DNA of 64,000 nt from a virus, in IMG/VR virus record IMGVR_UViG_3300032401_000010. One strand, 5' to 3'. Under the pieces are notes generated by a model. That model was not told where the DNA came from. It saw only the letters and a program-made list of their open reading frames with translations, and did no database searches. The translations under genes were made by a program, and so were the position numbers. Below, in pieces: positions 2,664-59,470 of the stretch (its first letter is position 1; each line of letters starts with the position of its first letter).

Positions 2664-2696
2664 TTGTTTTATTACTCCGTAACCATTTCTTGTTGT

Positions 2697-8953: not shown

Positions 8954-10165
8954 TCAAATAGTTTCTTCTAGCTCAGACTGTATTTCTTTTAAAGTTGGAT
9001 CAACCGTCAAACATAATTGCAACATGGTTTTAGCTGCGTTTGCTGGAATTTTCCCAGCAACATTAAGATCGCCTAATGCAAACGTTTTTAAATCCGGAGT
9101 CTTATTCCTTTTTAATGCAAATAAAGCTCCAGGCCATAATTTTGTCATAGCCTCTAAAGCAAAATCTTTCATTATCAAATGATGTTTAAGGCTATCATAA
9201 TCAATTTGAGTACGACGAAAAACTTCAGCAATTATTGGTTTTAAACGCCTTATTCTATTTGCTATCATCTCAGGCATCATACCAATAATATCATCATCTT
9301 TTTCTAATAAGATAACCTCCACGCACCCTCTGTAGGAAGTAGATAAGCTGTCACGCATATGATTATATATGACATACAACGGACTCTTTACTTTAACTCT
9401 ATTGAAGTTGGCGTCCTTAATAACAACGCCTTCTTTTTCTTTTGGATCCCAGTCTTTTACGACTTGGATCATATGATTTATATTTTTAAAATGATATTTT
9501 TCTACCGCAGGAACCTTTAAATTTGCCGCCAAAACTTCTGGCGAATACTCAGTTAAAGTTTTGTTATCACGGACTGCTAATAATGTTATAGATAATTTCT
9601 TGTAATCACAAACTATTCTATTAAAAGGACTTGTTAATTCAAAACAGTATGTGCAATTCTTGTCTATCTGCAACATCCCTTGGTTTCCATAGTTCATTAA
9701 ATCTTGAATATCATTTCCAAGATTCATTTCTTTTACTGCTAAATCAAATAATTTAGCAAAGGTTATGTCGCTTTCATCTATATTGCCATCAGCCTCCGGC
9801 CTAGAACGAGTTCCTACACACCACCTATCTTGTTCAAGATCCCAGTAAGCAATGCACATCGTTCCGTCTAATTTGTCTTCAAAACAAGCTGTGCTCCAAT
9901 CTATCTCGGCTGCTGTTTCTTTTTGTTCTAGATTGAAAAATCTAAACATTGGACAAGCAACTATATCATACGTTCCTTCTCTTAGGATTAATCCTCTGCA
10001 TTGTTGCGAAAGCGGATCTTGCTCTCTTGCTTCAATTTGATCATATGTTAACCCTATTTTCCCATTATGAATATAAGATTTAACTCCATGTTCTATTTTT
10101 AGATCTTGAAGAGTTTTTCCGGAACGCAAATATTTTTGAACGTGTAGCATTATGTCAAATACCAA
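8954..10165 (-). CDS. RNA ligase 1 (T4 RnlA-like)
   Basis: Segments align by eye to T4 Rnl1: CRGLILREGTYDIVACPMFRFFNLEQ matches CRGIMFEMDG..RPMEKFFNLNE; the adenylyltransferase KxDG motif I is FEDKLDGTM (T4: LTKEDGSL); EGVVIKD...FNRVKVKSPLYV matches the T4 motif IV/V region. Confidence 0.75.
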   Translation of the reverse strand: MVFDIMLHVQKYLRSGKTLQDLKIEHGVKSYIHNGKIGLTYDQIEAREQDPLSQQCRGLILREGTYDIVACPMFRFFNLEQKETAAEIDWSTACFEDKLDGTMCIAYWDLEQDRWCVGTRSRPEADGNIDESDITFAKLFDLAVKEMNLGNDIQDLMNYGNQGMLQIDKNCTYCFELTSPFNRIVCDYKKLSITLLAVRDNKTLTEYSPEVLAANLKVPAVEKYHFKNINHMIQVVKDWDPKEKEGVVIKDANFNRVKVKSPLYVIYNHMRDSLSTSYRGCVEVILLEKDDDIIGMMPEMIANRIRRLKPIIAEVFRRTQIDYDSLKHHLIMKDFALEAMTKLWPGALFALKRNKTPDLKTFALGDLNVAGKIPANAAKTMLQLCLTVDPTLKEIQSELEETI

Positions 10166-13325: not shown

Positions 13326-14375
13326 TCATTTTGTCAAAAAACCTTCGCCATGAAGTTTTAATATTACTCGCCCAAGTTTATCATGTCTGCGCTCAAACAC
13401 AGGGCGAATAACCACGCCTTCTCGAACGTGTTTGTTATCTAATGTTGAACTGCCTTCAGCAAGCTCATAAGCTTTCTCTTTATTCCATGGCCCCATATAA
13501 AGAACAGGAGCTATAGGCAAATCAAGAGCGTTAGTTATAGAAATAAACTCATCAAAATCTACATACCTCCGAAGATTACGATCATATATATCAAATAATC
13601 TAAGACCAGCCTCACCGCGCTTGACACTATATGGAAAACCTCCGGTGTAACCACATGTCTCACCATAGATAACAATTTTTCTATTGTTAGCCGCCTGCCA
13701 TGACGCAAGCTTATTTTCTAAATTATAAAGCTCAGCGGCCTTGCCCCAGCCACCAATACCACTTTTCTTTACATTAGTTCTAGAACCAATCCATAAACGA
13801 TTATCTTCATAACAAAATCTTGCGTTTTCTCCATGAATCTTTTCGACCATAATTACTTCTTCGCCATCAACAAAAATATTTTTCCAGCGCCTTAATCCTT
13901 CAACATCAGTATACGTAGGCATGTAATGATAATCAGGCTCATTCAGTCTTGTGTCGCCAAAGTTATATCCCTCATCTGGTGGCGGCTCATATTTATCAAT
14001 ACCTAACTTTTCCCTAACGTCTTCGCCTTCAACCATGCCTTCGTCAGCATGAATAAGTAAACCCATGCTAAATACACCACGAAGGCGCCTAGCTTTAATC
14101 CTGCGATACTTTGCTGGTACTTGACCAATGGGAGGCGTAGGCTCTTTTATATTTCCTTCCTTGTCCTTTTTCGGAGGAGGAGCAAGGAAGTAGAATTTTT
14201 CATTATCTGGACATAAACTATCTACCGGAATATAAACAACTAAATCTCCAGGCTTAAATTCTCCAAGTCTAACGATAGCAGGATAGTCCGCTACCTTAGT
14301 AATACCTAAGGTGTCGGCATCGGGATGTTTCGTAATTTCCCCAATACGAACAACTTCTATATGAAATTCGGTCAT
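13326..14375 (-). CDS. RNA ligase with N-terminal tRNA-binding OB (Myf/EMAP-like) domain
   Basis: N-terminus IGEITKHPDADTLGITKV resembles the HP(D/N)ADKL tRNA-binding OB fold. The nucleotidyltransferase motif I is MVEKIHGENARFCY (KxHG(E/T)N, as in Rnl2, DraRnl and NgrRnl). Confidence 0.6.
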   Translation of the reverse strand: MTEFHIEVVRIGEITKHPDADTLGITKVADYPAIVRLGEFKPGDLVVYIPVDSLCPDNEKFYFLAPPPKKDKEGNIKEPTPPIGQVPAKYRRIKARRLRGVFSMGLLIHADEGMVEGEDVREKLGIDKYEPPPDEGYNFGDTRLNEPDYHYMPTYTDVEGLRRWKNIFVDGEEVIMVEKIHGENARFCYEDNRLWIGSRTNVKKSGIGGWGKAAELYNLENKLASWQAANNRKIVIYGETCGYTGGFPYSVKRGEAGLRLFDIYDRNLRRYVDFDEFISITNALDLPIAPVLYMGPWNKEKAYELAEGSSTLDNKHVREGVVIRPVFERRHDKLGRVILKLHGEGFLTK

Positions 14376-14391
14376 TTGTTTTTCTTTTTTG

Positions 14392-15846: not shown

Positions 15847-16671
15847 TTAGTAAGCAACATTTAACTCTGGCTTCTTTGCTGTGCCTTGAACACGAATTAA
15901 TCTACCAAGACTTCCATCCTCTTCAAAGACTTGAGCCGTTAGAATACCAGTATCATACACAGCCGAGTCTAAATTGCAAGAAAATTTATAGAATTTCGCC
16001 TCGCCGTCTTTTTGAGCGGCATGACCAGAAGCAATATATCCAAAACGACCATCATATTTTTGATGCCACGAATCTCCGCCCTCTTTAGATTTAACTAAAG
16101 TGGATACTCCATTGATATCTTTCCAGATAAGAGGAATCATTCTACCATCTTCATCAACGTCTCTTACATAAACTACCTCAATATCTTTCTTGATATCGCC
16201 CCAGGTATGATGCGGAGTGACGCCAGCATGAACCACGGTAAGACGGGATCCGCTTTCAAACTGAAATGATAAAGCCAAAGGCTGGCGCCTCCACCAAATC
16301 AAAGCCTCACTCGGATCTTTCTTTGACTTCCGAATATGCTTAATTTCATGGTTGCCAGGGACGGCCCAGCCAACGCCACGCTTACGCAGAGTCATAAGCT
16401 CTTGCGTCATAGCCTCGGCTGTTTTCATACCAAAGCCTTTATCATATATGTCCCCTACTGATACAACCCACATTTTTCTGGAAGGATCAATCTCATTCAT
16501 CATCTTTTGAAATTGTTCTGGGTGCTCATGCACGTCTCCAAATACGGCAATTTTAGTGCCGTATGGAACTTCAATGTTGAGGTAATCCTCTGCTTTTGTT
16601 TCTGTTTTGCTCATTTTATTTCCTTCTTTTATGGTTATTTTTGTATAATGTTGATGAAAAAAATAGCTCAA
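15847..16671 (-). CDS. calcineurin-like metallophosphoesterase (lambda-phosphatase/PrpA-like); candidate RNA end-healing phosphatase
   Basis: Motifs VFGDVHEHPEQF (GDxHG-like), GDIYDKG (GDxxDRG) and GNHE. Confidence 0.7.
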   Translation of the reverse strand: MSYFFHQHYTKITIKEGNKMSKTETKAEDYLNIEVPYGTKIAVFGDVHEHPEQFQKMMNEIDPSRKMWVVSVGDIYDKGFGMKTAEAMTQELMTLRKRGVGWAVPGNHEIKHIRKSKKDPSEALIWWRRQPLALSFQFESGSRLTVVHAGVTPHHTWGDIKKDIEVVYVRDVDEDGRMIPLIWKDINGVSTLVKSKEGGDSWHQKYDGRFGYIASGHAAQKDGEAKFYKFSCNLDSAVYDTGILTAQVFEEDGSLGRLIRVQGTAKKPELNVAY

Positions 16672-19986: not shown

Positions 19987-21533
19987 TTGATCATAATACG
20001 TGCAGCATTTGTGTAAGGCAGAGGTTTCTTTGAAAATAACAAATCTGATGCCGAATCCTGAATATCATCTTCATCCCACGGAGAAGACTGAGTTTCAGAA
20101 TGTGCAACGCGAGTTAAAGCATTCACCACTCCAACTCTAGTTGGAACCGGTTCCTTCTCCCAAGCTTGCATCAATCGTTCAATACGATCTGATTTACGAC
20201 CACGAAGAGGCACAAGTTCTCTTTGAGTAATGCCAGCAAAAACATTCAACATACTATTATAAACATCACTGATATCAAGCGGCTCATCTTCTGGCTCAAT
20301 CGGAACCGCAGTAGTAATGACATTATCCTTCACACCGTAATTCCATGCGTCCGTAAATGGAGCAATTCTACTGAAAGATTCAGCAATATACCCTTTTACA
20401 GCAGCACGAATAATAACTTCAGCTCCCATATGCTTGCGGCGGCCAATATCAGTGCTAACCATCATATTGGTGAAGTTCAAACAAAGTGCTCGCCATGCTA
20501 CAGCCCTACTTACTAAAGAGCCTCCGCCTGTATCATCTGTATACAAACCGGAACCTACCTTGAAAACTTCTCCTACAACTCCGTCCTTAGATGAAATTTC
20601 AGTATGAAACAATGCCTGAATTCTAGCCTTTGCTTGAGCTTGATCATAAATGATTTCTACCCTGGCGTCCTTTGGAGCTTCTTCTGTAAAAAGTTCTGCC
20701 GCCTTATGAGCGTCATAACAAGCATAATGTTTACTAACAACGGCAAAGATTTCATGTCCGGCTCGACCATTACGTAGCCGAAGCTTACACATCTTGTCTG
20801 GCTTTTGTTGCTGTAACCAGTGATTAATATTTTTGGCGCGCAATTCTGGCGGGCATAACGAAAGATATCGAGCACAAGTCATATCAACAGGTGTCTGATC
20901 CATCAAGGCTTGCAAAGTCTGAATATTGCATAAATAAAATTCTCCAAGACCTGGAACCTTGACTTTCAAATCATCTGAAGCAGAAAGCTCCTTTACAGGA
21001 ATTACCACTTCAAACCTATCTTCAGATTTGATTTTCTTGACAAGTTCGGTCACTCCGTCAACAAGCAGAGGGAGCTTATCAAACTGCTGGCGCTCACGCC
21101 GAAATGCATCAACTCCACTTTGGGCTAGAGGAGTTCCTACGGCAAAGAAAGTATCAGGTTTTGGAAAGCCGCACTGATCAAGCTTGTCATCATCCTTCAG
21201 CGCGCGAGCAACGTTTTCCTTTTTGATCTTATCTTTATTTTCTGCAATAGTGATTATCTGCTCATTAACTTTATCCTCTAAAAGTTTTTGCTCCACAACT
21301 TTGTCATTCAAAAGTTTTTGCCCCATATCCACCATAGTATTGATATACTCTTGCTTAGACACTGGGGCAACAAGAGGTTCTACTACAGGCTTCTTGCCCT
21401 GTTGGTAAAACTGTCCCGCTAGCTTAATAACATTATCCTCCCCTGAGCCATAAACAATTTCGGCACCACACAAGATGCGGTGAGTAGCGGGCAGGCCTGA
21501 AATCTTGCAAATTTGCTGAGCTGTTTGAGTCAT
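19983..21533 (-). CDS. hypothetical large protein (516 aa)
   Basis: Long ORF without a recognisable catalytic motif; has a conserved-looking GSGLYTDDTGGGSLV segment. Confidence 0.5.
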   Translation of the reverse strand: MTQTAQQICKISGLPATHRILCGAEIVYGSGEDNVIKLAGQFYQQGKKPVVEPLVAPVSKQEYINTMVDMGQKLLNDKVVEQKLLEDKVNEQIITIAENKDKIKKENVARALKDDDKLDQCGFPKPDTFFAVGTPLAQSGVDAFRRERQQFDKLPLLVDGVTELVKKIKSEDRFEVVIPVKELSASDDLKVKVPGLGEFYLCNIQTLQALMDQTPVDMTCARYLSLCPPELRAKNINHWLQQQKPDKMCKLRLRNGRAGHEIFAVVSKHYACYDAHKAAELFTEEAPKDARVEIIYDQAQAKARIQALFHTEISSKDGVVGEVFKVGSGLYTDDTGGGSLVSRAVAWRALCLNFTNMMVSTDIGRRKHMGAEVIIRAAVKGYIAESFSRIAPFTDAWNYGVKDNVITTAVPIEPEDEPLDISDVYNSMLNVFAGITQRELVPLRGRKSDRIERLMQAWEKEPVPTRVGVVNALTRVAHSETQSSPWDEDDIQDSASDLLFSKKPLPYTNAARIMIK

Positions 21534-21556
21534 GCCGTCATGATAAGGATGGCGAA

Positions 21557-21835
21557 CTAAATGTCAAGCGGCTCGTCGTCCTCGTCCAATGAATGCCACC
21601 CGTTATACACAGATGAACCAGCCCAAATCTGATCTTCTTGTCCTTGCGACTTTAATTCGTATATTATTTCTTTTTGCATAGTTTCAAATAATTCAAATAT
21701 AGATTTCCAACGCGCTAATACATCATCGCTAACCTCAATTACAGGATAACAGCTTTCGTCATATAGCGATTCGTGAACTTCATATACCGGAAAAGCTTCT
21801 CTTCCATATATAGATACTTTCATTTGAAACTCCAA
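21557..21835 (-). CDS. hypothetical small acidic protein
   Basis: 92-aa ORF. Confidence 0.4.
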   Translation of the reverse strand: MEFQMKVSIYGREAFPVYEVHESLYDESCYPVIEVSDDVLARWKSIFELFETMQKEIIYELKSQGQEDQIWAGSSVYNGWHSLDEDDEPLDI

Positions 21836-21854
21836 AATATTGCTAGGTTCATTT

Positions 21855-22598
21855 TCAAATTTTTAGTATATGTGGTTTGCCGTCATGACCAATAGCAGCG
21901 TTACTAAAGGTTGTGCTACCTATGGAAAGCACACCATTACTAGGGTGAGCATGACCACACAGATACAATTTGAGTGGATTAGTAAGTTGATATGTTATAG
22001 TAGAGTTAATAAATGGATTGCCGATATGCTGTTCTTTTTTGGCATCATATGTATCAAGAATTCCATCTGGTGGACAATGTGCCACGAGAATATCAAGTCT
22101 ATCAAACATTTTAGCATCCTTAAGTCTTCGCAGAAATGTATTTACTTCTTTGCGAAGTTCATCAGGAGTACATTCAAAATTCCAGCAGTTTCGAATTTTC
22201 GGAACATATGGAAATCCGTACCATACGAAACCTTTATATTCAACTACTTTATTATCTAAATCAATAGCTTCTATCCCATTGTCATTCAAAATCTGACATG
22301 GATTTAGAAAATCATGATTGCCGGAACTCCAAATGAACGGCTTGCCTTTTATCCATTCTTTAATTGCTTTTATATTTGTGAGAAGCCATATCTTTTGGAA
22401 TTCTATCTCAGCTTTTCTTTTAGCGGCGGTTCGATTTGGTTCTAGCTCAATGCCGCGTTTTCCAAATGATTCACTTTTGTTATAAGCAAAAAAGTCTCCA
22501 GAACACACAACTACATCAAACTCCCCTGGGAGATCTATTAGCTGTCCATGGCAATCTGAAATGTGACATATAAGCATAATGTTATTGTAATCATTCAA
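21855..22598 (-). CDS. calcineurin-like metallophosphoesterase (second copy)
   Basis: Motifs ICHISDCHGQ, GDFF, GNHDF and GHAHP. The track starts it at a TTG codon that sits inside a 20-bp tandem repeat. Confidence 0.65.
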   Translation of the reverse strand: MNDYNNIMLICHISDCHGQLIDLPGEFDVVVCSGDFFAYNKSESFGKRGIELEPNRTAAKRKAEIEFQKIWLLTNIKAIKEWIKGKPFIWSSGNHDFLNPCQILNDNGIEAIDLDNKVVEYKGFVWYGFPYVPKIRNCWNFECTPDELRKEVNTFLRRLKDAKMFDRLDILVAHCPPDGILDTYDAKKEQHIGNPFINSTITYQLTNPLKLYLCGHAHPSNGVLSIGSTTFSNAAIGHDGKPHILKI

Positions 22599-22636
22599 TA
22601 TAAATAGTAATCATTCAATATAAATAGTAATCATTA
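22587..22636. repeat. 2.5 copies of a 20-bp tandem repeat (GTAATCATTCAATATAAATA) in the intergenic/start region
   Basis: Direct reading of gtaatcattcaatataaata twice, then gtaatcatta. Confidence 0.8.
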
Positions 22637-23059
22637 TATATTAATATGCCAGTTAAAACGAGCATGTGCCGGACCATCTTTACGAAAATTCATAGAAGTA
22701 AAGAATGCTTTACTTGTGCCATTCCACGGTGCTACAAATATTGTTTTTACACCTTTGTTTTTAGCATATCTTTTTGCTTTATTTATTAAATTTCTACCGA
22801 TACCTTTTTCACGCTTTTCTGGTTTAACATAAAATGACATAAAAGCATTAGTTTTTCCTTTTTCTATTAAACACCATCCAATATATTTATTATTTTGTTT
22901 AACAATAATCGCAATAAATCTCTTTGAAGCTTTATTTTTTTTATATTGATCTAACAAAGAACGCATTACGCTTGCGCCATAATTTGTTAAATAGTATAAT
23001 TTGTTAAACACTGTATCATCAGATAATTGATGAAGTGGTTTTGTAATATATTTAATCAT
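22634..23059 (-). CDS. GNAT-family N-acetyltransferase
   Basis: Acetyl-CoA-binding motif A-like segment REKGIGRNLINKAKRYAKNKGVKTIFV. Confidence 0.6.
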   Translation of the reverse strand: MIKYITKPLHQLSDDTVFNKLYYLTNYGASVMRSLLDQYKKNKASKRFIAIIVKQNNKYIGWCLIEKGKTNAFMSFYVKPEKREKGIGRNLINKAKRYAKNKGVKTIFVAPWNGTSKAFFTSMNFRKDGPAHARFNWHINI

Positions 23060-23349
23060 CCATTTCTTCCACGATTCTTTTGATTATTAGAACGTTTACT
23101 TGTAAAACGTTTGCTGATATCTTGCTTCGCTAACCACTTGACGTGCTTAGAAAATTTGTCATCTGTTAATAATGCATCAACAGAATCATATTCTTTTTCC
23201 AATTGTTTGTTAGAAAAAAAAGCGTGAATACTAGAATGACAAGAATTGCAAATTGGAAGCGTAACAATACCATCTCTACATTTTGGAGATAAATGATGAT
23301 TGCTAAAATATTTTTTATCACCATCTCTGCTGCATAATGGACATTGCAT
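23056..23349 (-). CDS. small HNH/zinc-finger nuclease-like protein
   Basis: CxxC...HH...P...G...CNSCHSSIH pattern typical of HNH. Confidence 0.45.
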   Translation of the reverse strand: MQCPLCSRDGDKKYFSNHHLSPKCRDGIVTLPICNSCHSSIHAFFSNKQLEKEYDSVDALLTDDKFSKHVKWLAKQDISKRFTSKRSNNQKNRGRNG

Positions 23350-23360
23350 ATTTCATACAT

Positions 23361-23549
23361 TCATTTTGTATGTTTAGGTTTTTTGTGCTTAGTAAGTAAT
23401 TTTTCTTTATTAATTTCTCGTTTTAAACGAAGTTCCTCTTCAATACAGTCTGAACATTGACAGCTGCGATCATAACTATGAGCCTTATTGGCTTTAATTA
23501 CTAGCTTTTTAAACTGTTGAGCAGCAACAAATAATTGATTATAAAACAT
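23361..23549 (-). CDS. hypothetical small Cys-containing basic protein
   Basis: 62-aa ORF. Confidence 0.3.
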   Translation of the reverse strand: MFYNQLFVAAQQFKKLVIKANKAHSYDRSCQCSDCIEEELRLKREINKEKLLTKHKKPKHTK

Positions 23550-23612
23550 TAAACCACCTATAGTTTCGAAAACTTATAGATATATACCTTAGTATTAACT
23601 GGTGTTTTGGTT

Positions 23613-24149
23613 TTAATATTTTATGTCTTTAATCGATCCATTACAATAAAACAAAACGTAATTTTTCAAAATATCAACTTCTTTTACACAAAATCCCATG
23701 CCTGACAAAAAGACGTTACCATCCACATCAGTATCAGCTTTTAATACATGAGTGAAAAAACGCAAAGCTTCTTCTGAAGAAACATAGGCAAAATAATTTT
23801 CTCCATCAATTTGAATTGAAGTTATTGATTTCTGTTTTTTCTCTTCTTTTATTTTAATCTTCTCAATACGTTTGGCATCATGCCCGCCGAATAAACCTCT
23901 TAGGTGTATTCCGCCAGTGCGCCCACGTCTTATTTCATAACCAGAAATTATATTATTAGCTATCAAATAACTAATTGCCTGACAGAAAACATACTTATCT
24001 ACTTTTGATTCAAGTTTTTCTTTTAAAAGATCATAAAATACAGATCGCGGAATTACGTTCTTGTTAACAATTTTCTCTTTAATTGATTTCTCAACTAAAT
24101 AAATGTCATTTTTTGATAAAACAAAAGACGAATCATTATCTTCTATCAT
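23613..24149 (-). CDS. hypothetical protein, paralogous motif shared with 42311..43144
   Basis: Shares the GYEIRRGRTGGIHLRG motif with the other gene's GFEIVRGKHGGVRLVD. Confidence 0.45.
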   Translation of the reverse strand: MIEDNDSSFVLSKNDIYLVEKSIKEKIVNKNVIPRSVFYDLLKEKLESKVDKYVFCQAISYLIANNIISGYEIRRGRTGGIHLRGLFGGHDAKRIEKIKIKEEKKQKSITSIQIDGENYFAYVSSEEALRFFTHVLKADTDVDGNVFLSGMGFCVKEVDILKNYVLFYCNGSIKDIKY

Positions 24150-24167
24150 ACACCCGGCCTCCTACTA

Positions 24168-24986
24168 TTATTCTTTTACAATCAAATCTCTGTTAACTCT
24201 AAATACATCATGCCCTGCATGAAGTATATTTAGAATAAAATTTCTATCAGCAACAAAATTTGGAATATTCATATCGATAATCCATTTGTTACGAGCAACC
24301 TCTCCCTCCTCCGTTCTTAGAATAACAGGAACTTTGTAAGCCGCTGTTCCTAAACGAAATGAATTTGGATAGAATGTTTCATATTCAATATCACATTTGG
24401 TTCTCAAAAGATCTATTTTTTCAGCAGATTTTTTTTCATGCAACATGCCCAAGGTTTGTTTCTTGCCATAAATTTTAGATAGTTCGGATTGTGCCGCCCC
24501 TGTTATTGCGTTTGTAGAACAATCTTGTTGTCGAAATATAAGGTTATTTGCAGCTTCAGTAATTGATGGGACAGCAAAAACTCTAGCATCAAAAATAGCG
24601 TCACCAACTATTTTTGGCGAATTTTCCATTGTGAATAAATTTTTAGCAAATGATAATGTTGTTATACTGGATACAATAGAAACTATTTTTTGTATTCTAT
24701 TTTGAAACCAAGGCTCGGATTCTAAAGACTGATCGTTTCTTATTACAAAAGTTATTTCATCACTTTGGTGATAAGCAAAAATGGCGCCTTCAATTTCCAT
24801 GGCGGCATGAAGCATTGTATTAGCCATAAGACTTAACATCTCATGACAATATGGACGTGGTAAATGTTTTGTTACCCTGCTAAAATTTTTGCCATCAACT
24901 CTTATTATTAATGGCAAACGTTTTATAATTTTATAATCATATGACTGTTCATACAATTTTTGTCTATCAGATAAAGATTCTTGCAT
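24168..24986 (-). CDS. Thg1-like protein (tRNA-His guanylyltransferase family 3'-5' nucleotidyltransferase)
   Basis: Aligns by eye to Thg1: IIRVDGKNFSRVTKHL matches VVRLDGRNFHRFAEKH; FAYHQSDEITFVI matches IAYGQSDEYSFVF; FRQQDCSTNAI matches WRQADCHINNL. Confidence 0.7.
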   Translation of the reverse strand: MQESLSDRQKLYEQSYDYKIIKRLPLIIRVDGKNFSRVTKHLPRPYCHEMLSLMANTMLHAAMEIEGAIFAYHQSDEITFVIRNDQSLESEPWFQNRIQKIVSIVSSITTLSFAKNLFTMENSPKIVGDAIFDARVFAVPSITEAANNLIFRQQDCSTNAITGAAQSELSKIYGKKQTLGMLHEKKSAEKIDLLRTKCDIEYETFYPNSFRLGTAAYKVPVILRTEEGEVARNKWIIDMNIPNFVADRNFILNILHAGHDVFRVNRDLIVKE

Positions 24987-25073
24987 TGTGGCGATCAGTT
25001 TTACTGAAAATCAAAATGTTAAGCGCTTTTGTAACACGCACACACGTACACACACGTACACACATCATCCGCC

Positions 25074-25823
25074 CTACCTATTGCTGAGCGCCAGTGCAAA
25101 TTTTAACACTTCATTTAATTCATCAATAGTTGCACATTTAACGAATTGCTTACTGCCAAATACCGGACCAGACATCGGCCTATCCTTATCATCCTTTTTG
25201 GTTCCCCAAACAAAATCGTCTGGAATCCCAAGAGATGGATAATAAGTTCCAACAAACCATGTTCCATACGCAGACATAATAGCAAGCGAATAGCCATGAA
25301 TATAAGCCGCTTGCATGCCGCCGTCTTTAAGAGCTACAGCAATACCATCAACAACATGATAGCTTTTTTCCATTCTATTGTATTCAAAAGAAGCTTTATT
25401 AATTAAAGCCAAAGGACTTTTTGCTAATTCTTTAAATGAATTAATTTGATTAATTATATCACTAGCATACATATCACCTTCTTTACAAAAAGAACATGCT
25501 GCCAACCACCAAGCTGTTTCATTAGGAATTTGTACAAAACCTGTTTGAATTTCAGCTATTTCTTTTTTAATTTGTTCAATTGCCGCTGGTGTATAAGCTC
25601 CATGAAGAATAGCACTTAACCGTTGTTTGTTTCTTGGAATTAAATCCAAACAACAAGCAATCCCAGCATCGAAACCAGGAGCTATAATTCGGTTCTCTCG
25701 CTCATCCGGAATGCGATGAACCAAACTCATTTCATCAACAAAAGACGGCCAGTTGCCAAGCTCCTTGATACGAGAAGCGTTAATTGCAACCTGGCTCTTA
25801 ATGGCCTCTATTTTGGAAGTCAT
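25074..25823 (-). CDS. hypothetical protein
   Basis: 249-aa ORF with a TTGACT-N16-TATACT promoter upstream; no assignable domain. Confidence 0.5.
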   Translation of the reverse strand: MTSKIEAIKSQVAINASRIKELGNWPSFVDEMSLVHRIPDERENRIIAPGFDAGIACCLDLIPRNKQRLSAILHGAYTPAAIEQIKKEIAEIQTGFVQIPNETAWWLAACSFCKEGDMYASDIINQINSFKELAKSPLALINKASFEYNRMEKSYHVVDGIAVALKDGGMQAAYIHGYSLAIMSAYGTWFVGTYYPSLGIPDDFVWGTKKDDKDRPMSGPVFGSKQFVKCATIDELNEVLKFALALSNR

Positions 25824-26037
25824 CGTTTGCTTATATCTAGTATAGCCATTTCCTTAGAAAAGTCAAGGAGTTAGGCGTTAAAAAGTGGTTGGCTGTGCTT
25901 CGGAAGGGGGAAATCCTACAACACTTTTGCGCTCAGGGGAATGAGGCTGGGCCTGCCAACCAAGGCCAAGTTTTTAACTGTCTTGCTGTATCAGTTGATA
26001 TACAAACAATTTATTTTTTTAGGTTCATTGAGTTATT

Positions 26038-27936
26038 TTAAATCATGCCCAGAAATTGTTGCTCAGAAATAAGGGTTGTTCCAAACTTTCTTGCCGCATC
26101 AGCTTTCGAAGAAGTGCTATTGGGATCGGCAATTACAAGATAATGCAATCCTTTGCCTACACTCTTTTTTACTGAACCACCAGCATCTTCAACCATTTTC
26201 TGAAGCGCTGGCCTTGGCTTTTCCATTGAACCAGTAAAACAAAAACTTTTCCCGGTAAGCTTGCCCTTGACTCGCGGTTTAATAGTAACGCCCGCAGCCA
26301 AGATATCTTCTATGCGCTTCTTATTCGTTTTAAGACCGTTTACGAGAGCCTTGGCCCGAATGCTGCCAAAGCCGCCGAGGCTCGCCAAACGGCCCTCAGT
26401 AAGCACTAGCATGGCATCCAGAGTATCATAGCCAGCCTCAACAACAACCTTGGTGGTTGAAGTGCCTACACCATTAATTCCTAGCCCGCCGATTAAGTTC
26501 TCAAGCGAAATTTTTCGATGCCCATTAAGAACATCAATTAGCTTTTGTGCAGAACGTTCTCCCATTCTGTCAAGCTTCTCAAGCTGTACTGCTGTCAACC
26601 TATATAGATCGCCAACATCTTTGACAAGTCCGGCATCAATAGTCTTTTGAAGAATACTCTCGCCCCACTCAAGAATATTCTGTTCGTTGATCCATGTCTT
26701 GAGCCTTCCAATTACTTGGGCTGGACAAGTTTCTTTATTTGTACAACGAAGATATTCTCCATTAAACTCAGTTGGAGAATTACACTCAGGACACTTCTTC
26801 GGCGGCTTATGAACAGAGTCGGTGCCTTTAATAAGTTCTTCAACCCTTGGAATTACATCATTGGCTCGAATGATCAATACTTCAGAACCAACATCAATAC
26901 CAAGTTCTTTAACATAAGAATAATTATAGCAACTAGCTCGCTTAACCTTTGCTCCAAGCAAGTTCACTTCATCGAACTCTGCTACTGGAGTAATAGTCCC
27001 AGTGTTACCAACTTGATCTACGAACCTAATAATCTTTGATGTTGCACTTGGAGCTTCAAACTTAAAAGCGATAGCTCCCTTTGGACGATGATTTTTATCG
27101 CCCAAAGCAAATTGGACAGACATATTATCAACGCGAATAACTACACCGTCGATATCATAATCAAGCGAGTCACGAATTGAACTTTGATATTTATTATATT
27201 GACTAATAACTTCTCGCACTTCTCTATAAACGGCAGAAACAGGAACGTTAAAACCAGTTTTGTTCAGCCATTTAAATTGTTCGCCCTCAGTGTCGAAATC
27301 TTTACCGTTAACAGTATACATCATAACGGTAAGATGCTCAACGCCAATTCCATCAAGTCTTTTTGCTATACCAGATGCTGCATTTCTAGGATTAGCATAC
27401 TCGGGAAAATATTTCTTATTGTCAGACTTCAATAGAATAATTTCACCGCGCACACTTCCTGTAAAGGATTCATTAAGCTTTTGTGGAATGCCTTTCATTC
27501 TAGCAACGTTAGCAGTAATATCCTCGCCTATGTTACCGTCACCACGAGTAACTGCCTGAACGAGCTTTCCTTTTTCCCAAATGGTATTAATTGAAATACC
27601 ATCCAGCTTTTCAGTAAAGAAAATGCCGGAATTTAAATTACGAGAACTTAGGCCTGTACCAGAAGGTGACTGCTGCTCACACTCCTTGGCCCAGGCTTTA
27701 AATTCGTCCTCTGTATTAACTTTATTAAGCGAACCCATTGGAACAGAATGAGAAGCCTTCTTCCATTCAGAAACAACAGGAGCGCCAACGGATGTTACAG
27801 CTGTGTGGTTCGGATCAAGTTTCGAAAGCTCATCAACCCAAGCATCAAAGATAGCATCCGAAACTGTTGGCCCGACATTGTAGTAGTCATGGCGAGCTTT
27901 AACAATTTTATATGCTAGCTCTTTGATTTTAGACAC
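26038..27936 (-). CDS. ligA: NAD+-dependent DNA ligase (LigA)
   Basis: Ia domain at the N-terminus (YKIVKARHDYYNVGPTVSDAIFDAWVDEL), adenylation motif KLDGISI, Cys4 Zn finger (CPECNSP...C...CPAQ), HhH region and a C-terminal BRCT-like tail. Confidence 0.85.
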   Translation of the reverse strand: MSKIKELAYKIVKARHDYYNVGPTVSDAIFDAWVDELSKLDPNHTAVTSVGAPVVSEWKKASHSVPMGSLNKVNTEDEFKAWAKECEQQSPSGTGLSSRNLNSGIFFTEKLDGISINTIWEKGKLVQAVTRGDGNIGEDITANVARMKGIPQKLNESFTGSVRGEIILLKSDNKKYFPEYANPRNAASGIAKRLDGIGVEHLTVMMYTVNGKDFDTEGEQFKWLNKTGFNVPVSAVYREVREVISQYNKYQSSIRDSLDYDIDGVVIRVDNMSVQFALGDKNHRPKGAIAFKFEAPSATSKIIRFVDQVGNTGTITPVAEFDEVNLLGAKVKRASCYNYSYVKELGIDVGSEVLIIRANDVIPRVEELIKGTDSVHKPPKKCPECNSPTEFNGEYLRCTNKETCPAQVIGRLKTWINEQNILEWGESILQKTIDAGLVKDVGDLYRLTAVQLEKLDRMGERSAQKLIDVLNGHRKISLENLIGGLGINGVGTSTTKVVVEAGYDTLDAMLVLTEGRLASLGGFGSIRAKALVNGLKTNKKRIEDILAAGVTIKPRVKGKLTGKSFCFTGSMEKPRPALQKMVEDAGGSVKKSVGKGLHYLVIADPNSTSSKADAARKFGTTLISEQQFLGMI

Positions 27937-27989
27937 TGTGTTTCCTGTTAATTTTTGGTGATATTAGTTAATTGATTTACCAACGATAC

Positions 27990-28820
27990 TCATCGGCACT
28001 CATCCTCCTCCTCATCATAATCCTTCTCATCATCATCTTCATCCTTATCATAATCACCCTCACCCTCATCCTCCTCATTATCATCTTCATAAAGCTCTTC
28101 AGTGGAGCCTTTATCGACAACCTGAATAACCTCAAAGCGGCAAACACGCATTTTGGAAGTTCCGTAAGCCTCTGGAACAGCCACAACATCCCTTGGATTC
28201 ACCTTGATCATGATGCAAACCGGACCAAAGCTCCTAGCGAACTCATAGTTTGCAGCATGAAGTCCATTGCTACACGCATTTTCGCTCTCATCAACCTTGT
28301 TACGGTCCATCTTAACAATCTCGCCAGGAGAATTGTCCATGCTGCCAGAATGACAGTCCATGAAATCCTCTCGAACTCCACGATAGGCAATGAAACAACC
28401 ATCGGGAGTGATAGGATGGCGATTTGCCTCAAGAAATCCGAAAAGCCGAGTTACGGCACGGTTCGACGGATTCTTATTCAGATTCTTCCAGAACAGCAGA
28501 AGCGGCTCATAGGGAAGATTCTGGCTAGAGTAATCAACGATGCGAGCACTAAGCGCAGACGGAATCTTTTCGCCATCGATATGAACCACACCATTGATAA
28601 CTTCCATATGTCCATCAGAAAAAGATGCAATCTGTTTCTTTGGACACACAATACTTGGAATATCATCCCAACGACTTTCGCGAATAGCGCTCAAAGCATC
28701 ATTGAAACGCTTTTCATCATTCGATTTTTGAAGGCTCTTGAACTCGCCGCCAGCAAGGCTAACGGTGAGAACGCCATCTACAAGTGTCCACGGAAGAGGA
28801 ATATTTAATGAAGTGATCAT
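27990..28820 (-). CDS. rIIB-like protein (assigned by synteny), with strongly acidic C-terminal tail
   Basis: Lies immediately downstream of the GHKL-ATPase rIIA-like gene. Length 276 aa with an Asp/Glu-rich tail. No independent motif, so the call rests on synteny only. Confidence 0.35.
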   Translation of the reverse strand: MITSLNIPLPWTLVDGVLTVSLAGGEFKSLQKSNDEKRFNDALSAIRESRWDDIPSIVCPKKQIASFSDGHMEVINGVVHIDGEKIPSALSARIVDYSSQNLPYEPLLLFWKNLNKNPSNRAVTRLFGFLEANRHPITPDGCFIAYRGVREDFMDCHSGSMDNSPGEIVKMDRNKVDESENACSNGLHAANYEFARSFGPVCIMIKVNPRDVVAVPEAYGTSKMRVCRFEVIQVVDKGSTEELYEDDNEEDEGEGDYDKDEDDDEKDYDEEEDECR

Positions 28821-28835
28821 GTTTTTTTGTTTCTC

Positions 28836-31055
28836 CTACCCAACTAGTTTAACCACGTCTGCCGAAAAGTCAAGTCCATTCGCTGCGTCCACAGCGTTAA
28901 TATAGTCGATAAGCGCCTTCTTGCCGACGTTATCGCTGCGAATTACCCACAAATCGATAAATCTGAGCAAAGAATACTTTGTAGTTACAACATTATGCAA
29001 CTTACAAAGATCAGTGTTATTGGCATCAGTCTTTTTTTCTATCTTACGACCTTCAACAAGATCTACGATAGCAATGATATCAGCAGACTCTTTGGATGAT
29101 TTATCTACTAGCTTAAGCTCGGAGATATATTTGCTCATCGGACTGTCTTCATGGAGCTTGCTCAAAAACTCAGTAACAAGCTTGATCATCATATCTTCTA
29201 AACGGAACCGCGATGCACTCTCAATATCGGCTCGCAGCTTATCGATATCCTCAAGCTGTTTAATTTCGTCCACCTTTTCCTGCAACACAACATGCAGTGG
29301 ACGCCAGTTCTTACCAAGGAACTTCTTGTCGGACTCACGCACCCCAATAATAGGATCATCATCGCCAAGAATTGTCTGAGCAAGACGAAGGTTTTCGATA
29401 GTATAGGAATGATTATTATCGGAAGACGGTTTACCCTTATTGTTACCATGGAGCATAACATATGTTCCAGAACCACCATTCTTAATAAGAGTATGTGGCT
29501 CCCAATGATTATCACATTTGCGATTGCTTCTATATGAAAGATCAAATATAAAGCCGTCGAAATCTTCACGACGCTTTGCTCGCTCAAGCTTCTTTCTATC
29601 ACGAATCTCTTTCGGAATGTGAACAACAGAAATGCGGTCATCACAGATTAGGGTTATGTCAAACCCAATATCAACTCCCGAACTACTCTTAGCATTGCGC
29701 CAACGTTCAATACCGGCTTCAACGTTGCCATCAGCGAATGTAATAACCTGAACTTGTTTAATGGCCTTATCAGCAAGAATGATCTTAATGCGATCATGAG
29801 AAACACGTTCGGTAGTAAGATCATTGAAGTAAATGATGCTTTCGTCAGCAACCACTAACTTTGATTCTTGTTTTTTGCTCAAATATTCATTATATTTGCG
29901 ACCCTTTTGCATAAAAAAACTATAAACACTAACGCCAATATCACCAGGAAGATTGAACACAATGTTCTTTACACTGTGACCGTTCCACAACGGGTTAAAA
30001 TTATTCGGCAAAGCACATGCTAGTGTATTGCAAAACTTGTTATAGTAAAGAACTGCGTCCCAATACGATTCATTATTCTCAATTTTCTGCTGAAGATTGA
30101 TGGCAATTTCATTACGGGCCTTCTCAAGCTTACCCAGAATTTGTGCCTGCGTCTTATCATCATACTGAAGCTGTTCTCTGTTGGCCGAAGGTGTAAGTTC
30201 GCCAATATTGAAATACAATCTTAGTTTCTTTGAAAGAAGATCTCTATCCTTAGTAGAAATATTACGAATATGATTAATGTTAATTGGATAACTCATGCCA
30301 TCCAAAATGATTTTTGCAAGGCTATTATAACCATAATTCTCTCTATTACTAGAAGAATACAGCTTCCAATCATCACCTTGCAAAACATCAGCGCCTTCGA
30401 TTTCCCATGCCGGAAGGGGATCGAGTCCGGTCAGAATGGGCCTAACACTATTTGGAACATCATCCCAATATTGAGTTGCAGCAATGGTAGCCGCAATGAA
30501 TGACTGGATATCTCGCTGTTCTACAGGAACGCTAATCTCGGTTCCGCAAGGCTCTGAGGTTTCAGATTCATATACAAGGCGAAGAGAACCTTGCTCAGAT
30601 TCATCAATGTGGGCAATGTATGCTCGCTTGATATTTACCCCGGTTTCGTTTGTGATAGTAACGATTGAAAACTGATTGGTTTTAGCGAATGGCGTCTTAC
30701 TTCCAAGCCCAAAACCACCAGTCTGAATATTATCGTTTCGCTTAGTAGATTGTCCATATCCAAGGTAAACATTCTCAATAATATCAGGAGTGATACCAGG
30801 ACCAAAATCCCTTACCTTCCAATTCCTATCAAGGATGTTTGGAAGATGAATCTGGATAGGCTTATCATTCCCTACTACACGATGAGCATCCCGTGCATTA
30901 CAAGTAATTTCGCGACAGATAGCATTGATAGGATCCGAATACAACATCTCCCGAAGGATCTTCATGACCATCCCGAGATTACCAATACGGAAAGACGACT
31001 GCTTGAGAGTTTGCCCGCCCATTTCAATGTGGCTGTTATTGTCTTCGATTTTCAT
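28836..31055 (-). CDS. GHKL (HSP90/histidine-kinase-like) ATPase protein, rIIA-like
   Basis: N box EITCNARDAH, G1 box DFGPGI and G2 box GGFGLGSK. Length 739 aa, close to T4 rIIA. A good TTGACA-N16-TATTCT promoter and an AGGAG site lie upstream. Confidence 0.55.
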   Translation of the reverse strand: MKIEDNNSHIEMGGQTLKQSSFRIGNLGMVMKILREMLYSDPINAICREITCNARDAHRVVGNDKPIQIHLPNILDRNWKVRDFGPGITPDIIENVYLGYGQSTKRNDNIQTGGFGLGSKTPFAKTNQFSIVTITNETGVNIKRAYIAHIDESEQGSLRLVYESETSEPCGTEISVPVEQRDIQSFIAATIAATQYWDDVPNSVRPILTGLDPLPAWEIEGADVLQGDDWKLYSSSNRENYGYNSLAKIILDGMSYPININHIRNISTKDRDLLSKKLRLYFNIGELTPSANREQLQYDDKTQAQILGKLEKARNEIAINLQQKIENNESYWDAVLYYNKFCNTLACALPNNFNPLWNGHSVKNIVFNLPGDIGVSVYSFFMQKGRKYNEYLSKKQESKLVVADESIIYFNDLTTERVSHDRIKIILADKAIKQVQVITFADGNVEAGIERWRNAKSSSGVDIGFDITLICDDRISVVHIPKEIRDRKKLERAKRREDFDGFIFDLSYRSNRKCDNHWEPHTLIKNGGSGTYVMLHGNNKGKPSSDNNHSYTIENLRLAQTILGDDDPIIGVRESDKKFLGKNWRPLHVVLQEKVDEIKQLEDIDKLRADIESASRFRLEDMMIKLVTEFLSKLHEDSPMSKYISELKLVDKSSKESADIIAIVDLVEGRKIEKKTDANNTDLCKLHNVVTTKYSLLRFIDLWVIRSDNVGKKALIDYINAVDAANGLDFSADVVKLVG
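28846..28873 (-). promoter_or_regulatory. sigma70-like promoter (TTGACT-N16-TAAACT) inside the 3' end of the rIIA-like gene, driving the rIIB-like gene
   Basis: Minus-strand read: TTGACT-TTTCGGCAGACGTGGT-TAAACT, then AGGAGAAAC and the ATG. Confidence 0.5.
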
Positions 31056-32925: not shown

Positions 32926-32928
32926 TTC

Positions 32929-33126
32929 TCAATTTCCGTAAAGGGCTTCAGATATTTTATCTATTAAATCTCGTTCAACATTAGATATTTTCCAATAAGG
33001 CTTATCCATTTGATCTCTAATAACATCGGCTTCATGTTCGTCACCTCTTCCTGTCGCCATAAGAACATTAAGATCTAATAACAATCTCAGATATTTTTCA
33101 AATGGTTTATTCATTTTCGTCCTCAA
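32929..33126 (-). CDS. hypothetical small protein
   Basis: 65-aa ORF. Confidence 0.3.
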   Translation of the reverse strand: MRTKMNKPFEKYLRLLLDLNVLMATGRGDEHEADVIRDQMDKPYWKISNVERDLIDKISEALYGN

Positions 33127-43686: not shown

Positions 43687-44349
43687 TCAAGTCCCTAAAG
43701 CCAGTTTATTGCGCACTATCTCTTTAGATCTCCAATGATCATCCGTTTGCACATGATTTTTTCTTACCAACTTACTAACACTTGAGGCGAACGCAGAATC
43801 TTCAAATCCATAAACTAAACGAACTACAACGCCCTCTCTTTCCGGACCATAAAAAGAAGGCTGTTTCATAAATGATTCGGTAATTCTTTGTAGTTCTTTT
43901 TCCGTTTTAACTGTAATGTTAGCCAATTCTGGAACAGTATATAAGCCAAGTTTATTCGCCGTTTCTTTTACACCGTTCCAGCCTAACCAATAATGAATAT
44001 TTGGTTCAGTATTTATTATTCTTACTCCGAACATAAGAAAATAAGCAGGAAGTTTATCGTAAAAAATCGAATGTTTAGCTGCTACCCATTCTCCGAAAAT
44101 TTGCATATTTATTGGTATATTATGTTTTATAGAAGTATGCAAAGTTTTAAATTCATTAAAGGAAGGATGATTTGGTGGTCCCGAATGAGTACGAGCATAA
44201 CAACTATCATGCTGTAAACATACGTTACTTCCGTCTATTTTTTCTAATAGAACAAGTTCATGTCCCAAAAATGAATCTACAGATGATAAAATTTTGTCAT
44301 CTGATGTTCCGCTACTCCAAGGTAAATGAAAAGTTCTGGGATATTTCAT
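43687..44349 (-). CDS. RNA ligase-family nucleotidyltransferase (small Rnl2-like, KxDG)
   Basis: N-terminal MKYPRTFHLPWS and motif I LLEKIDGSNVCL. Confidence 0.55.
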   Translation of the reverse strand: MKYPRTFHLPWSSGTSDDKILSSVDSFLGHELVLLEKIDGSNVCLQHDSCYARTHSGPPNHPSFNEFKTLHTSIKHNIPINMQIFGEWVAAKHSIFYDKLPAYFLMFGVRIINTEPNIHYWLGWNGVKETANKLGLYTVPELANITVKTEKELQRITESFMKQPSFYGPEREGVVVRLVYGFEDSAFASSVSKLVRKNHVQTDDHWRSKEIVRNKLALGT

Positions 44350-57934: not shown

Positions 57935-58143
57935 TATTTGTTAAACCATACAACATGAGTATATGTTTGATCTATGTTTGGTAGATCTATTTGTTCGTCA
58001 GTCATCTCTGACGATGTAGCATAATAGCCATTGCCATCATAACCATTATAACTACCAGATCGCACTGCTTTAGAAAACTCTTCCAAGGTCATGTGTTCCC
58101 CGTAATCAGGTATTGGTTCCATCCGTCTCGGCTTACTGAGCAA
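57934..58143 (-). CDS. hypothetical small protein
   Basis: 69-aa ORF. Confidence 0.3.
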   Translation of the reverse strand: MLSKPRRMEPIPDYGEHMTLEEFSKAVRSGSYNGYDGNGYYATSSEMTDEQIDLPNIDQTYTHVVWFNK

Positions 58144-59470
58144 TCGATTTAACCTTTTCCTGATACCATTTCCTAGCAGCTTCCATAACTGGCCTATTTA
58201 CTTTAGCCCAGTCAAGATTAGAAGCTTCAAGTTCAGCTCCGCTTTCCTTCTGCACGTCAGCCGTAATCCACTTTAAGAAGGCGCCTGTGAGCTTGGCATC
58301 ATACTGTCCGTTACATGCCGTAGTAACTGCCTGCTCAAGCCTTGCAGGAGTAACGAACATATCTACGAATTCATTAACGCTAGCAGCTACTTCAGGATCA
58401 ATCTGAACTGCCGCCTTCTGCTTGACTACCTTATGCTGTTCTCCTTTAGCTTTAAAAAACAGATCGTAATAATCAGAACGCATTATTACATTTGTATCAT
58501 CTTTTTTCAAAGGATATAAAACAATGCCTTCCCCGATCCCCTCTACATGGAAAACAGATTTAACCCAAGGATCACAAGCCTCAACTTTAGCCACCATCTC
58601 ATTTAGATTCTCGGCAGCCTTGCGCAACTGTTCAGTGTCTGCGAAATCTAAAACAATTTCTTCACCATACCAAGGAAGAACATATAGGTCAAGGTTAGGC
58701 AGAGAGGTGTGATCAATTAATAAATCAGCGATTGTTTTTGGCTCAGCATAATACCTGGACGTATTATCAGAGTTACCACATTGAATTGCAAACACTGCTA
58801 GAATCTTCTTGCCAATATTATTGATAGCTGTACCCTGTTGTATTGATTCTCCGCACCATTCTCCAAATACAGTTACTATTTCGTCCTTAACCATTTTCTT
58901 GAAGAAAGCCGTATTATTATCCACCCATTTAGCAAACCCAGCATTATCATTCTCTGGAGTAATAATACTGGTTCTGCTCTGAGCAAATACTTTCCCGTCA
59001 GGATGGATCTGAACAGCAGCATTCGTTCCATGCAATTTAATCTTAGCTTTGTATGTAACCGAAGGAAGTTTGTAAGACTCGCCAAGATTAGAACGAAGAT
59101 CCCCTAATCCTTTACGAACCCCAACTAACCCTTCAATCTGTGGCCAATAATGCATGCTAGCGCCAGAAGTATTCAAATCTTCTTTACAATACTCAGCAGT
59201 AACATCTGTACCAACGTCAGCTTCAGATTTACCTAATGCCATACCATACGAATGAAGTCCGCGAACCTTGGTAGAAGAAATTTTGGTTCCGTCCTTAAGT
59301 GTAGAACCACTAAGAACTATAACAACCTTATCATCAACTTCATAGATGTTCTCAAGGTTGGCTACGATTTGATTTGTTTCAAAACCTTCTGCTTCCATTT
59401 CGTATAAACGCAAAGCGTCTGCAAAAGGATGTTTCTCGGCCTTGATTACTTTCATTACTACAGCGGTCAT
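58133..59470 (-). CDS. RNA ligase with N-terminal tRNA-binding OB domain (NgrRnl/DraRnl-like)
   Basis: N-terminus VIKAEKHPFADALRLYE (tRNA-binding OB signature) and motif I KIKLHGTNAAV (KxHGTN). Confidence 0.65.
   Translation of the reverse strand: MTAVVMKVIKAEKHPFADALRLYEMEAEGFETNQIVANLENIYEVDDKVVIVLSGSTLKDGTKISSTKVRGLHSYGMALGKSEADVGTDVTAEYCKEDLNTSGASMHYWPQIEGLVGVRKGLGDLRSNLGESYKLPSVTYKAKIKLHGTNAAVQIHPDGKVFAQSRTSIITPENDNAGFAKWVDNNTAFFKKMVKDEIVTVFGEWCGESIQQGTAINNIGKKILAVFAIQCGNSDNTSRYYAEPKTIADLLIDHTSLPNLDLYVLPWYGEEIVLDFADTEQLRKAAENLNEMVAKVEACDPWVKSVFHVEGIGEGIVLYPLKKDDTNVIMRSDYYDLFFKAKGEQHKVVKQKAAVQIDPEVAASVNEFVDMFVTPARLEQAVTTACNGQYDAKLTGAFLKWITADVQKESGAELEASNLDWAKVNRPVMEAARKWYQEKVKSIAQ

Follow-up and report, generated by a model that had tools for sequence, protein, structure and literature searches.

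A Bacterial-Type Thg1-Like Protein Encoded by an Uncultured Large Phage: Predicted Active Site, Phage Relatives and a Possible Role in tRNA 5'-End Repair

The window analysed here is the whole 64-kb stretch of viral DNA (64,000 nucleotides; IMG/VR record IMGVR_UViG_3300032401_000010), which has a G+C content of 37% and is transcribed almost entirely from the minus strand. The features of interest are collected in Table 1. They comprise the gene of a Thg1-like protein (TLP), which is the subject of this analysis, together with genes for an NAD-dependent DNA ligase (LigA), rIIA, rIIB, a GNAT acetyltransferase and several RNA ligases. A comparison of positions 20000-30000 of the window with GenBank phages by megablast yielded zero matches at the DNA level, and the rIIA of the window showed ~28% identity to that of the nearest isolates. 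The arrangement of the LigA and TLP genes was retained in closely related phages (L001-L006). The two ORFs flanking the TLP gene (249 and 178 amino acids) had no family matches and were conserved in the closest relatives only, which gives no sign of a conserved partner. PADLOC matched neither the TLP nor the genes directly beside it. A promoter scan around the TLP gene was uninformative, since 14 sites were found against 12.3 expected by chance.

The phage context is rich in RNA-repair genes. Four RNA-ligase genes scoring above the Pfam cut-off and a weak fifth candidate were identified in the window, at distances of 10-35 kb from the TLP gene. The tRNA genes of the window are one tRNA-Thr(UGU), which adjoins an RNA ligase gene, and one odd tRNA-like gene; when relatives of the latter were sought in IMG/VR by a sequence pattern, only two ordinary tRNAs came up. 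About 60 of the window ORFs were scanned for a polynucleotide kinase, and none of these had a kinase domain; the window covers part of the phage genome. For the phosphatase step of end healing, the candidates are the two metallophosphoesterases, one of which is among the genes around the TLP gene, and a PHROG 335 phosphatase. The TLP gene does not lie in an operon with RNA-repair genes, and the genes on either side of it are of no recognisable function. Among IMG/VR loci with a TLP relative, an RNA ligase was detected within 10 kb of the TLP in 16 of 80 by single-sequence phmmer, an insensitive search; this points to some association but to no operon, and the figure is descriptive only because it comes without a baseline. 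The sequence-only reading of this DNA had combined the TLP with "the ligases". RNA-ligase genes are indeed present in the window, but the ligase that adjoins the TLP gene is the NAD-dependent DNA ligase, the RNA ligases are distant, and the kinase partner was not among the scanned ORFs.

Table 1. Features of the window referred to in the text; coordinates are window positions and residue numbers are those of the phage TLP unless stated otherwise.
Feature	Coordinates	Strand	Details
Thg1-like protein (TLP) gene	24168..24986	minus	ATG start; 272 codons, 272 aa; N-terminal palm-like catalytic domain (~residues 8-140) plus C-terminal domain
D31 codon	24894..24896	minus	First metal-binding carboxylate, RVDG motif; equivalent to BtTLP D30 and human THG1 D29
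R44 codon	24855..24857	minus	At the BtTLP K43/ScThg1 K44 site, from the alignment map
D76 and E77 codons	24756..24761	minus	Second and third carboxylates; equivalent to BtTLP D75/E76 and human D76/E77; codons read from the sequence
NAD-dependent DNA ligase (LigA)	26038..27936	minus	Pfam adenylation, OB, zinc-finger, HhH and BRCT domains; PHROG 3869, E=6.5e-157
rIIA	28836-31055		Near the TLP gene
rIIB			Near the TLP gene
GNAT acetyltransferase			Near the TLP gene
Metallophosphoesterase	21855-22598		Calcineurin-type
Metallophosphoesterase	15847-16671		Calcineurin-type
"Phosphatase"	45991-46695		PHROG 335
RNA ligase, Rnl1-type (T4 RnlA-like)	8954..10165	minus	PHROG 562, E=4.8e-40; Pfam RNA_lig_T4_1 PF09511, E=1.6e-17
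RNA ligase with PHA02142 OB-fold domain	13326..14375	minus	PHROG 968, E=4.1e-39; Pfam PF09414 and PF21189
tRNA-Thr(UGU)	14391-14463		Adjoins the RNA ligase at 13326..14375
Short RNA ligase, PF09414 family	43687..44349	minus	PHROG 24030, E=1.4e-46; Pfam E=2e-23
RNA-ligase candidate, weak (fifth)	55066-55719		
tRNA-binding domain-RNA ligase fusion	58133..59470	minus	tRNA_bind PF01588 (residues 4-89 of the fusion) and RNA_ligase PF09414; PHROG 548, E=1.8e-49

The family of the TLP was established by profile and sequence searches. The Thg1 Pfam model, which the sequence-only reading had named as a check, matched the ORF with 98 bits (PF04446; E=5.4e-28) against a gathering score of 29.2 bits, the match extending over residues 8-140 and over positions 3-130 of the 130-position model. 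PHROG 4717, "tRNA-His guanylyltransferase", matched residues 1-255 (E=1.5e-56). Among PDB sequences, the top match was 4kgk, the TLP of Bacillus thuringiensis (BtTLP; E=4.5e-31), and human THG1 was matched with E=1.3e-12. The Pfam Thg1C model gave 15.7 bits, which is under its cut-off of 26.3. From the Pfam, PHROG and PDB scores, the similarity to Thg1 was judged to be far beyond chance, and the Thg1-family identity of the ORF product can be regarded as practically certain.

These results bear out the earlier placing of a Thg1-like protein on this ORF. Three segments that had been likened to eukaryotic and archaeal Thg1 were located in its translation at residues 30-41 (VDGKNFSRVTKH), 71-82 (AYHQSDEITFVI) and 152-161 (RQQDCSTNAI). 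The likeness stood at the level of the Thg1 family, but the nearest relatives proved to be bacterial TLPs. The minus strand of the gene had been left unstated at that stage.

Catalytic residues were mapped through a HMMER alignment to BtTLP, and their roles were taken from the study of that enzyme (PMC3701042). The N-terminal 103 residues aligned to BtTLP without gaps, which allowed a direct residue map. D31, D76 and E77 aligned gap-free to the reference carboxylates, so that a check for the loss of the Asp/Glu metal ligands found all three in place. Read directly, the D31 codon is atc on the plus strand and GAT on the minus strand. D76 and E77 were invariant in the alignment of 35 clade members and are preceded by S75, forming a QSDE motif. 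Residues shared with both BtTLP and the human enzyme are E13, R29, D31, S75, D76, E77, K100, R135, R152, D155 and N159; roles have been described for the equivalents of all of these up to R152 (PMC3701042), and D155 and N159 were conserved in the alignment. The nucleotidyl-transfer and triphosphate-binding residues (R27, K95/96 and R130/133) are kept as R29, K100 and R135, and the activation-step serine is kept as S75.

The sole deviation among the mapped functional residues is R44, with which the conserved activation-step lysine is absent. Across the 35 members of the clade alignment, position 44 is occupied by K in most and by R in a minority. The lysine contacts and positions ATP during 5'-end activation, and its replacement in BtTLP (K43A) slowed ATP-dependent activation ~10-fold and left GTP-dependent activation unaffected (PMC3701042). 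Since the change to arginine is conservative and K43A affects the ATP route only, R44 is no argument against activity. By its sequence, the active site of the phage TLP is intact.

To place the protein within the family, a profile was built from 35 relatives drawn from a large protein collection (clade alignment A1) and searched against the PDB sequences. The profile scored 192 bits against BtTLP, compared with 99 bits for human Thg1, 97 for that of Candida, 87 for that of yeast and 80 for the archaeal TLP of Methanosarcina (MaTLP). The eukaryotic HINNLYN motif (human ~152-158) was not present; STNAITG occupies the aligned query positions 157-163, and G163 sits where the activation-step Asn of HINNLYN (ScThg1 N161) falls. 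The lack of HINNLYN and the profile scores together point to the template-dependent TLP group and not to a true tRNA-His guanylyltransferase, and the protein was classified by these sequence features as a template-dependent bacterial-type TLP.

The AlphaFold2 model computed on A1 had a mean pLDDT of 90.9 and a pTM of 0.87, and its predicted fold is that of Thg1/TLP proteins. All 32 Foldseek matches in the PDB with E<=0.001 were Thg1 or TLP structures. The best structural match was BtTLP (TM 0.86-0.92 on target length, ~254 aligned columns), with 4kgm at the top (TM 0.89-0.91), and the next matches, to GGDEF, Cas10 and other unrelated structures, had E above 1e-3. The C-terminal domain was covered by both the model and the structural alignment despite the Thg1C score below cut-off. 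Judged by family, active site and predicted structure, the ORF would encode a catalytically competent bacterial-type TLP of an uncultured large phage with rIIA and rIIB.

BtTLP (PDB 4KGK/4KGM) is the best match of the phage TLP among solved structures in both sequence and structure. The two proteins share the carboxylate triad, the R/S/K/R nucleotide-binding residues and a TLP-type motif replacing HINNLYN. However, their identity is only ~30%, and BtTLP is encoded by a bacterial gene whereas the query is phage-encoded. The phage protein has R44 for K43, R97 for N96, S36 for H35 and G163 for M158. It is ~27 residues longer than the 245-residue BtTLP chain; its C-terminal half contains short insertions, and ~16 additional residues at its C-terminus bear a G-x-D-x-F-R motif conserved in the clade. 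The eukaryotic Thg1 enzymes of yeast, human and Candida, which are true tRNA-His G-1 guanylyltransferases, share the fold and the two-metal active site (human D29/D76/E77). In contrast to them, the phage TLP lacks HINNLYN, and the profile scores of these enzymes were half that of BtTLP. By homology, the phage TLP is expected to be template-dependent, whereas eukaryotic Thg1 adds a non-templated G opposite A73.

The TLP gene is under strong purifying selection. The comparison with its orthologue in L005, which lies on a 130-kb contig and is 83% identical at the nucleotide and 87% at the amino-acid level, gave dN=0.069 and dS=0.977, and therefore dN/dS=0.07 (Nei-Gojobori). At least 23 contigs, which come from several metagenome samples of JGI and ENA, encode the identical protein; its JGI annotation is "tRNA(His) 5'-end guanylyltransferase".

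Relatives of the protein form a phage-borne TLP clade with 40-90% mutual identity, found in environmental metagenomes on contigs with phage genes. Those that were looked up (42-87% identity) come from contigs 130-315 kb long, and for other relatives the protein clusters extend to 460 kb. Besides rIIB and NAD-salvage genes, these contigs encode DNA and RNA ligases, RtcB, an enzyme of the PolyA_pol/CCA type and a stand-alone tRNA_bind protein. The clade belongs to large or jumbo environmental phages. Outside phages, the best cellular matches, in a collection of bacterial and archaeal genomes with one genome per species, were 30-37% identical and mostly from Clostridia.

A Thg1-like enzyme had been called unexpected in a phage, which does not agree with the record. 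A dedicated PHROG family exists, and homologues were found in 161 GenBank phage records, mostly annotated as tRNA-His guanylyltransferase already and including 46 Bacillus, 15 Prevotella, 13 Caulobacter and 11 Mycobacterium phages; in IMG/VR, 229 stretches encode a TLP relative. A 2013 paper drew attention to a Thg1 gene of Bacillus phage Bc431v3, the phage CBB paper (2017) discusses Thg1 and links it to a phage tRNA gene, and a 2021 survey of jumbo phages lists Thg1 among RNA-repair enzymes and proposes the same repair role (PMC7824862). For Pseudomonas phage 201phi2-1, too, a putative Thg1 has been annotated. Phages go unmentioned in a 2019 review of Thg1 research, and the literature searched yielded no biochemical work on any phage TLP. 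The phages of PHROG 4717 (e.g., Bacillus Goe8, G, Bc431v3 and BSP38, Staphylococcus PMBT8, Pectobacterium CBB and Pseudomonas 201phi2-1) carry proteins of the same family with full-length matches (tblastn coverage 90-95%). Like the present phage, they are large phages of the myovirus type in which tRNA or RNA-repair genes occur as well. The query differs in falling into a separate environmental clade, its identity to the GenBank phage copies not exceeding 36%. The present copy is a diverged addition, from an uncultured phage lineage, to phage genes that are already routinely annotated.

The tRNA genes of TLP loci were compared with those of cellular loci. Perfect 7-bp acceptor stems were present in 51 of the 58 distinct tRNAs of phage TLP loci and in 48 of 52 in cellular loci. 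In the phage TLP loci, mismatches at position 1 were confined to tRNA-Met(CAU) genes, and a 1-72 mismatch is a normal feature of initiator tRNA. A need for 5' editing of the mitochondrial type was rejected, as the stems are mostly perfect, the mismatches occur only in tRNA-Met(CAU) and the picture is similar to that of cellular loci.

Bacterial-type TLPs mend 5'-truncated tRNAs in vitro, and the most likely role of the phage enzyme would be the templated repair of such tRNAs during infection. Using ATP or GTP, the TLP would activate an RNA end that bears a 5'-monophosphate, and the 3'-OH of an incoming NTP would then attack the activated end. Nucleotides would be added in the 3'-5' direction, one at a time, with the 3' strand of the acceptor stem as the Watson-Crick template. 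In this way tRNAs of the host or the phage could regain nucleotides lost from their 5' ends, including G-1 of tRNA-His opposite C73, and the enzyme would work beside the several RNA ligases of the phage, keeping translation running in infection. The two-step mechanism is taken over by homology from BtTLP (PMC3701042) and the archaeal TLP (PMC4820378).

The nearest parallel in phages is the tRNA repair system of T4, in which Pnkp and Rnl1 counter anticodon nucleases. The window likewise holds an Rnl1-family ligase and further RNA ligases, which makes a capacity for sealing breaks plausible, and the logic of a phage mending damaged tRNA is the same. In contrast, T4 has no TLP, and no Pnkp-like kinase was detected in the window ORFs scanned; moreover, the TLP would target the 5' terminus of the acceptor stem, whereas the T4 system deals with breaks in the anticodon loop. 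The sequence-only reading held that the phage can repair both tRNA breaks and 5'-end truncations. We infer enzymatic activity and a tRNA substrate, and a repair function is plausible, but the argument from the ligases was overstated. We place the probability of the whole explanation, a competent TLP with a role in tRNA 5'-end repair, at roughly 0.55, a blended figure; the repair role taken on its own is put more tentatively, at slightly under even odds. To our knowledge, no host nuclease trims tRNA 5' ends; the anti-phage tRNases that we know of cut anticodon loops or arms. Counted against the repair role, besides the lack of a known 5'-trimming nuclease, were the missing operon link, the low ligase co-location, R44, the kinase that was not seen in the scan and the lack of phage TLP biochemistry in the literature searched.

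A dedicated function in tRNA-His maturation has to be weighed against this proposal. The enzyme would then add or restore G-1 on phage or host tRNA-His for charging by histidyl-tRNA synthetase, as the family name and most database annotations suggest, and the link drawn in the CBB paper between Thg1 and a phage tRNA gene points the same way. In one IMG/VR locus (L032), a tRNA-His(GUG) gene lies 2.4 kb downstream of the TLP, with an encoded G-1 and C73, which is the normal bacterial arrangement. Heinemann in 2010 and Rao in 2011 are said to have found bacterial TLPs able to add a templated G-1 opposite C73, which would also fit this function. However, no tRNA-His was found in the 64-kb window or within 10 kb of the TLP in 8 close loci, and one was near the TLP in only 2 of 60 IMG/VR loci, of which L032 is the one with a normal GUG anticodon. 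The absent HINNLYN motif and a score twice as high against the repair-type BtTLP argue against it as well. In bacteria, G-1 is normally encoded in the genome and retained by RNase P, and a dedicated G-1 enzyme is therefore not needed. Taken together, we regard such a dedicated role as unlikely.

The enzyme could also act on something other than tRNA, such as the 5' ends of phage transcripts, small RNAs or cap-like GpppN ends. Action on non-tRNA 5' ends has been suggested for some eukaryotic TLPs, e.g., Dictyostelium TLP4. The loose linkage of the TLP gene to tRNA genes and RNA ligases would agree with such a substrate, as would the separation of the phage clade, with its 40-90% internal identity, from cellular proteins at 30-37%. 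Further support comes from PMC5041481, according to which TLPs without a known function occur widely and the Dictyostelium TLPs differ in their biological roles. Against it, no sequence feature indicates another substrate, and the predicted active site and fold are those of BtTLP, the characterised activity of which is tRNA 5'-end repair; we consider a non-tRNA substrate very improbable. That the gene is an inactive relic, or its similarity a matter of chance, was considered in view of the sub-threshold Thg1C score, the arginine at position 44 and the lack of an obvious Shine-Dalgarno sequence upstream of the TLP ATG. This reading is effectively refuted by E-values of 1e-28 to 1e-56, the three kept carboxylates, the low dN/dS, the recurrence of the identical protein on many contigs and a C-terminal domain that was modelled confidently and aligned with BtTLP.

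By itself, this copy leaves existing knowledge unchanged. With its good conservation under strong selection and four or five RNA ligases in the same 64-kb region, it could nevertheless become a test case for reverse polymerisation in the tRNA conflict between phage and host. We know of no natural source of tRNA 5' truncation in bacteria, and of no established physiological role for bacterial-type TLPs. The TLP clade could conceivably serve counter-defence, rebuilding tRNA 5' ends removed by an undescribed nuclease of the host or of a competitor; we infer such a function with great reserve and hold it to be rather improbable. If it were true, bacterial-type TLPs would gain their first natural substrate and their first physiological role, and a new class of anti-phage tRNase directed at the acceptor stem would be implied.

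The TLP gene, encoding the Thg1-like protein, is preceded by an 87-bp spacer (window 24987-25073), within which a perfect decamer repeat, CACACACGTA, occurs in 2.6 copies at 25039-25064. No obvious Shine-Dalgarno sequence was found before the TLP ATG, in contrast to the next ORF downstream (start 24149), which is preceded by AGGAGG. In the relative L005, whose TLP is 87% identical, a LAGLIDADG homing endonuclease gene occupies the place taken in the window by a 249-aa ORF of unknown function. In one group of IMG/VR phages (L015-L024), tRNA-Thr genes and/or tmRNA were located 0.2-1.5 kb downstream of the TLP gene, and a tRNA with a CUA anticodon, of the amber-suppressor type and labelled 'Pyl' by ARAGORN, was situated ∼4 kb beyond them.

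The most divergent members of alignment A1, which comprises 35 TLP relatives, were P0089, P0095, P0099, P0101, P0102 and P0120 (40-48% identity). At the position of D31, the first metal-binding Asp, these sequences carry Asn or Glu-Ala, and the activation-step Ser of the QSDE motif is missing, the motif reading HHDE, GFDE, FNDE, KDDE or YNDE, while D76 and E77 are retained. The six proteins may represent a sub-clade whose active site is altered or no longer functional.

The longest ORF at window 27972-28808 lies on the plus strand. In contigs of identical sequence, however, the gene called between rIIA and LigA, the NAD-dependent DNA ligase gene, is a minus-strand rIIB of 276 aa (PF26926), and the plus-strand ORF is therefore probably spurious. 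The co-occurrence of this ligase with an NAD synthetase and a NUDIX hydrolase gives the window an NAD+ theme, and NAPRTase is present in related phages. Other unusual cargo was observed at 861-3329, 31225-34816, 45004-45774 and 56157-57332, all on the minus strand.

Features of the window and of the related locus L005
Feature	Locus	Coordinates	Strand	Remark
RNA-ligase-family gene	window	8954-10165	-	
RNA-ligase-family gene	window	13326-14375	-	
NUDIX hydrolase	window	14825-15427	-	
NAD-dependent DNA ligase	window	26038-27936	-	
Glutamine-dependent NAD synthetase	window	34809-36734	-	CN_hydrolase + NAD_synthase
RNA-ligase-family gene	window	43687-44349	-	
tRNA-like gene, ∼92 nt	window	48543-48635	-	ARAGORN: tRNA-Arg(ACG)
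RNA-ligase-family gene	window	55066-55719	-	weak fifth candidate
tRNA-binding domain + RNA ligase fusion	window	58133-59470	-	single ORF; PF01588 (residues 4-89) + PF09414
SPFH/Band-7 protein adjoining YqiJ-like membrane protein	window	within unusual-cargo regions	-	
Protein-kinase-like ORF adjoining transglycosylase-domain ORF	window	within unusual-cargo regions	-	
Sulfotransferase	window	within unusual-cargo regions	-	
Copper monooxygenase C-terminal domain protein	window	within unusual-cargo regions	-	
LAGLIDADG homing endonuclease	L005	9104-9979	-	directly upstream of TLP gene, on the opposite strand to it

The number of RNA-ligase paralogues within the 64-kb window, four above the Pfam cut-off and one weak, is unusually high. 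A tRNA-binding domain is fused to a ligase in the window; the related phage L008 encodes a tRNA_bind protein as a separate gene.

The tRNA-like gene was missed by the Rfam tRNA model with default filters and scored 47 bits with lax filters. Its acceptor, D and T arms were normal. In the lax-filter match, the central anticodon-arm portion spanned 28 nt where 9 nt are expected; the anticodon loop could contain an intervening sequence, or the extra arm could be a long one. When IMG/VR was searched by pattern for relatives of this gene, only ordinary tRNAs were returned. Such an odd tRNA-like gene is intriguing given the presence of several RNA ligases in the same phage.
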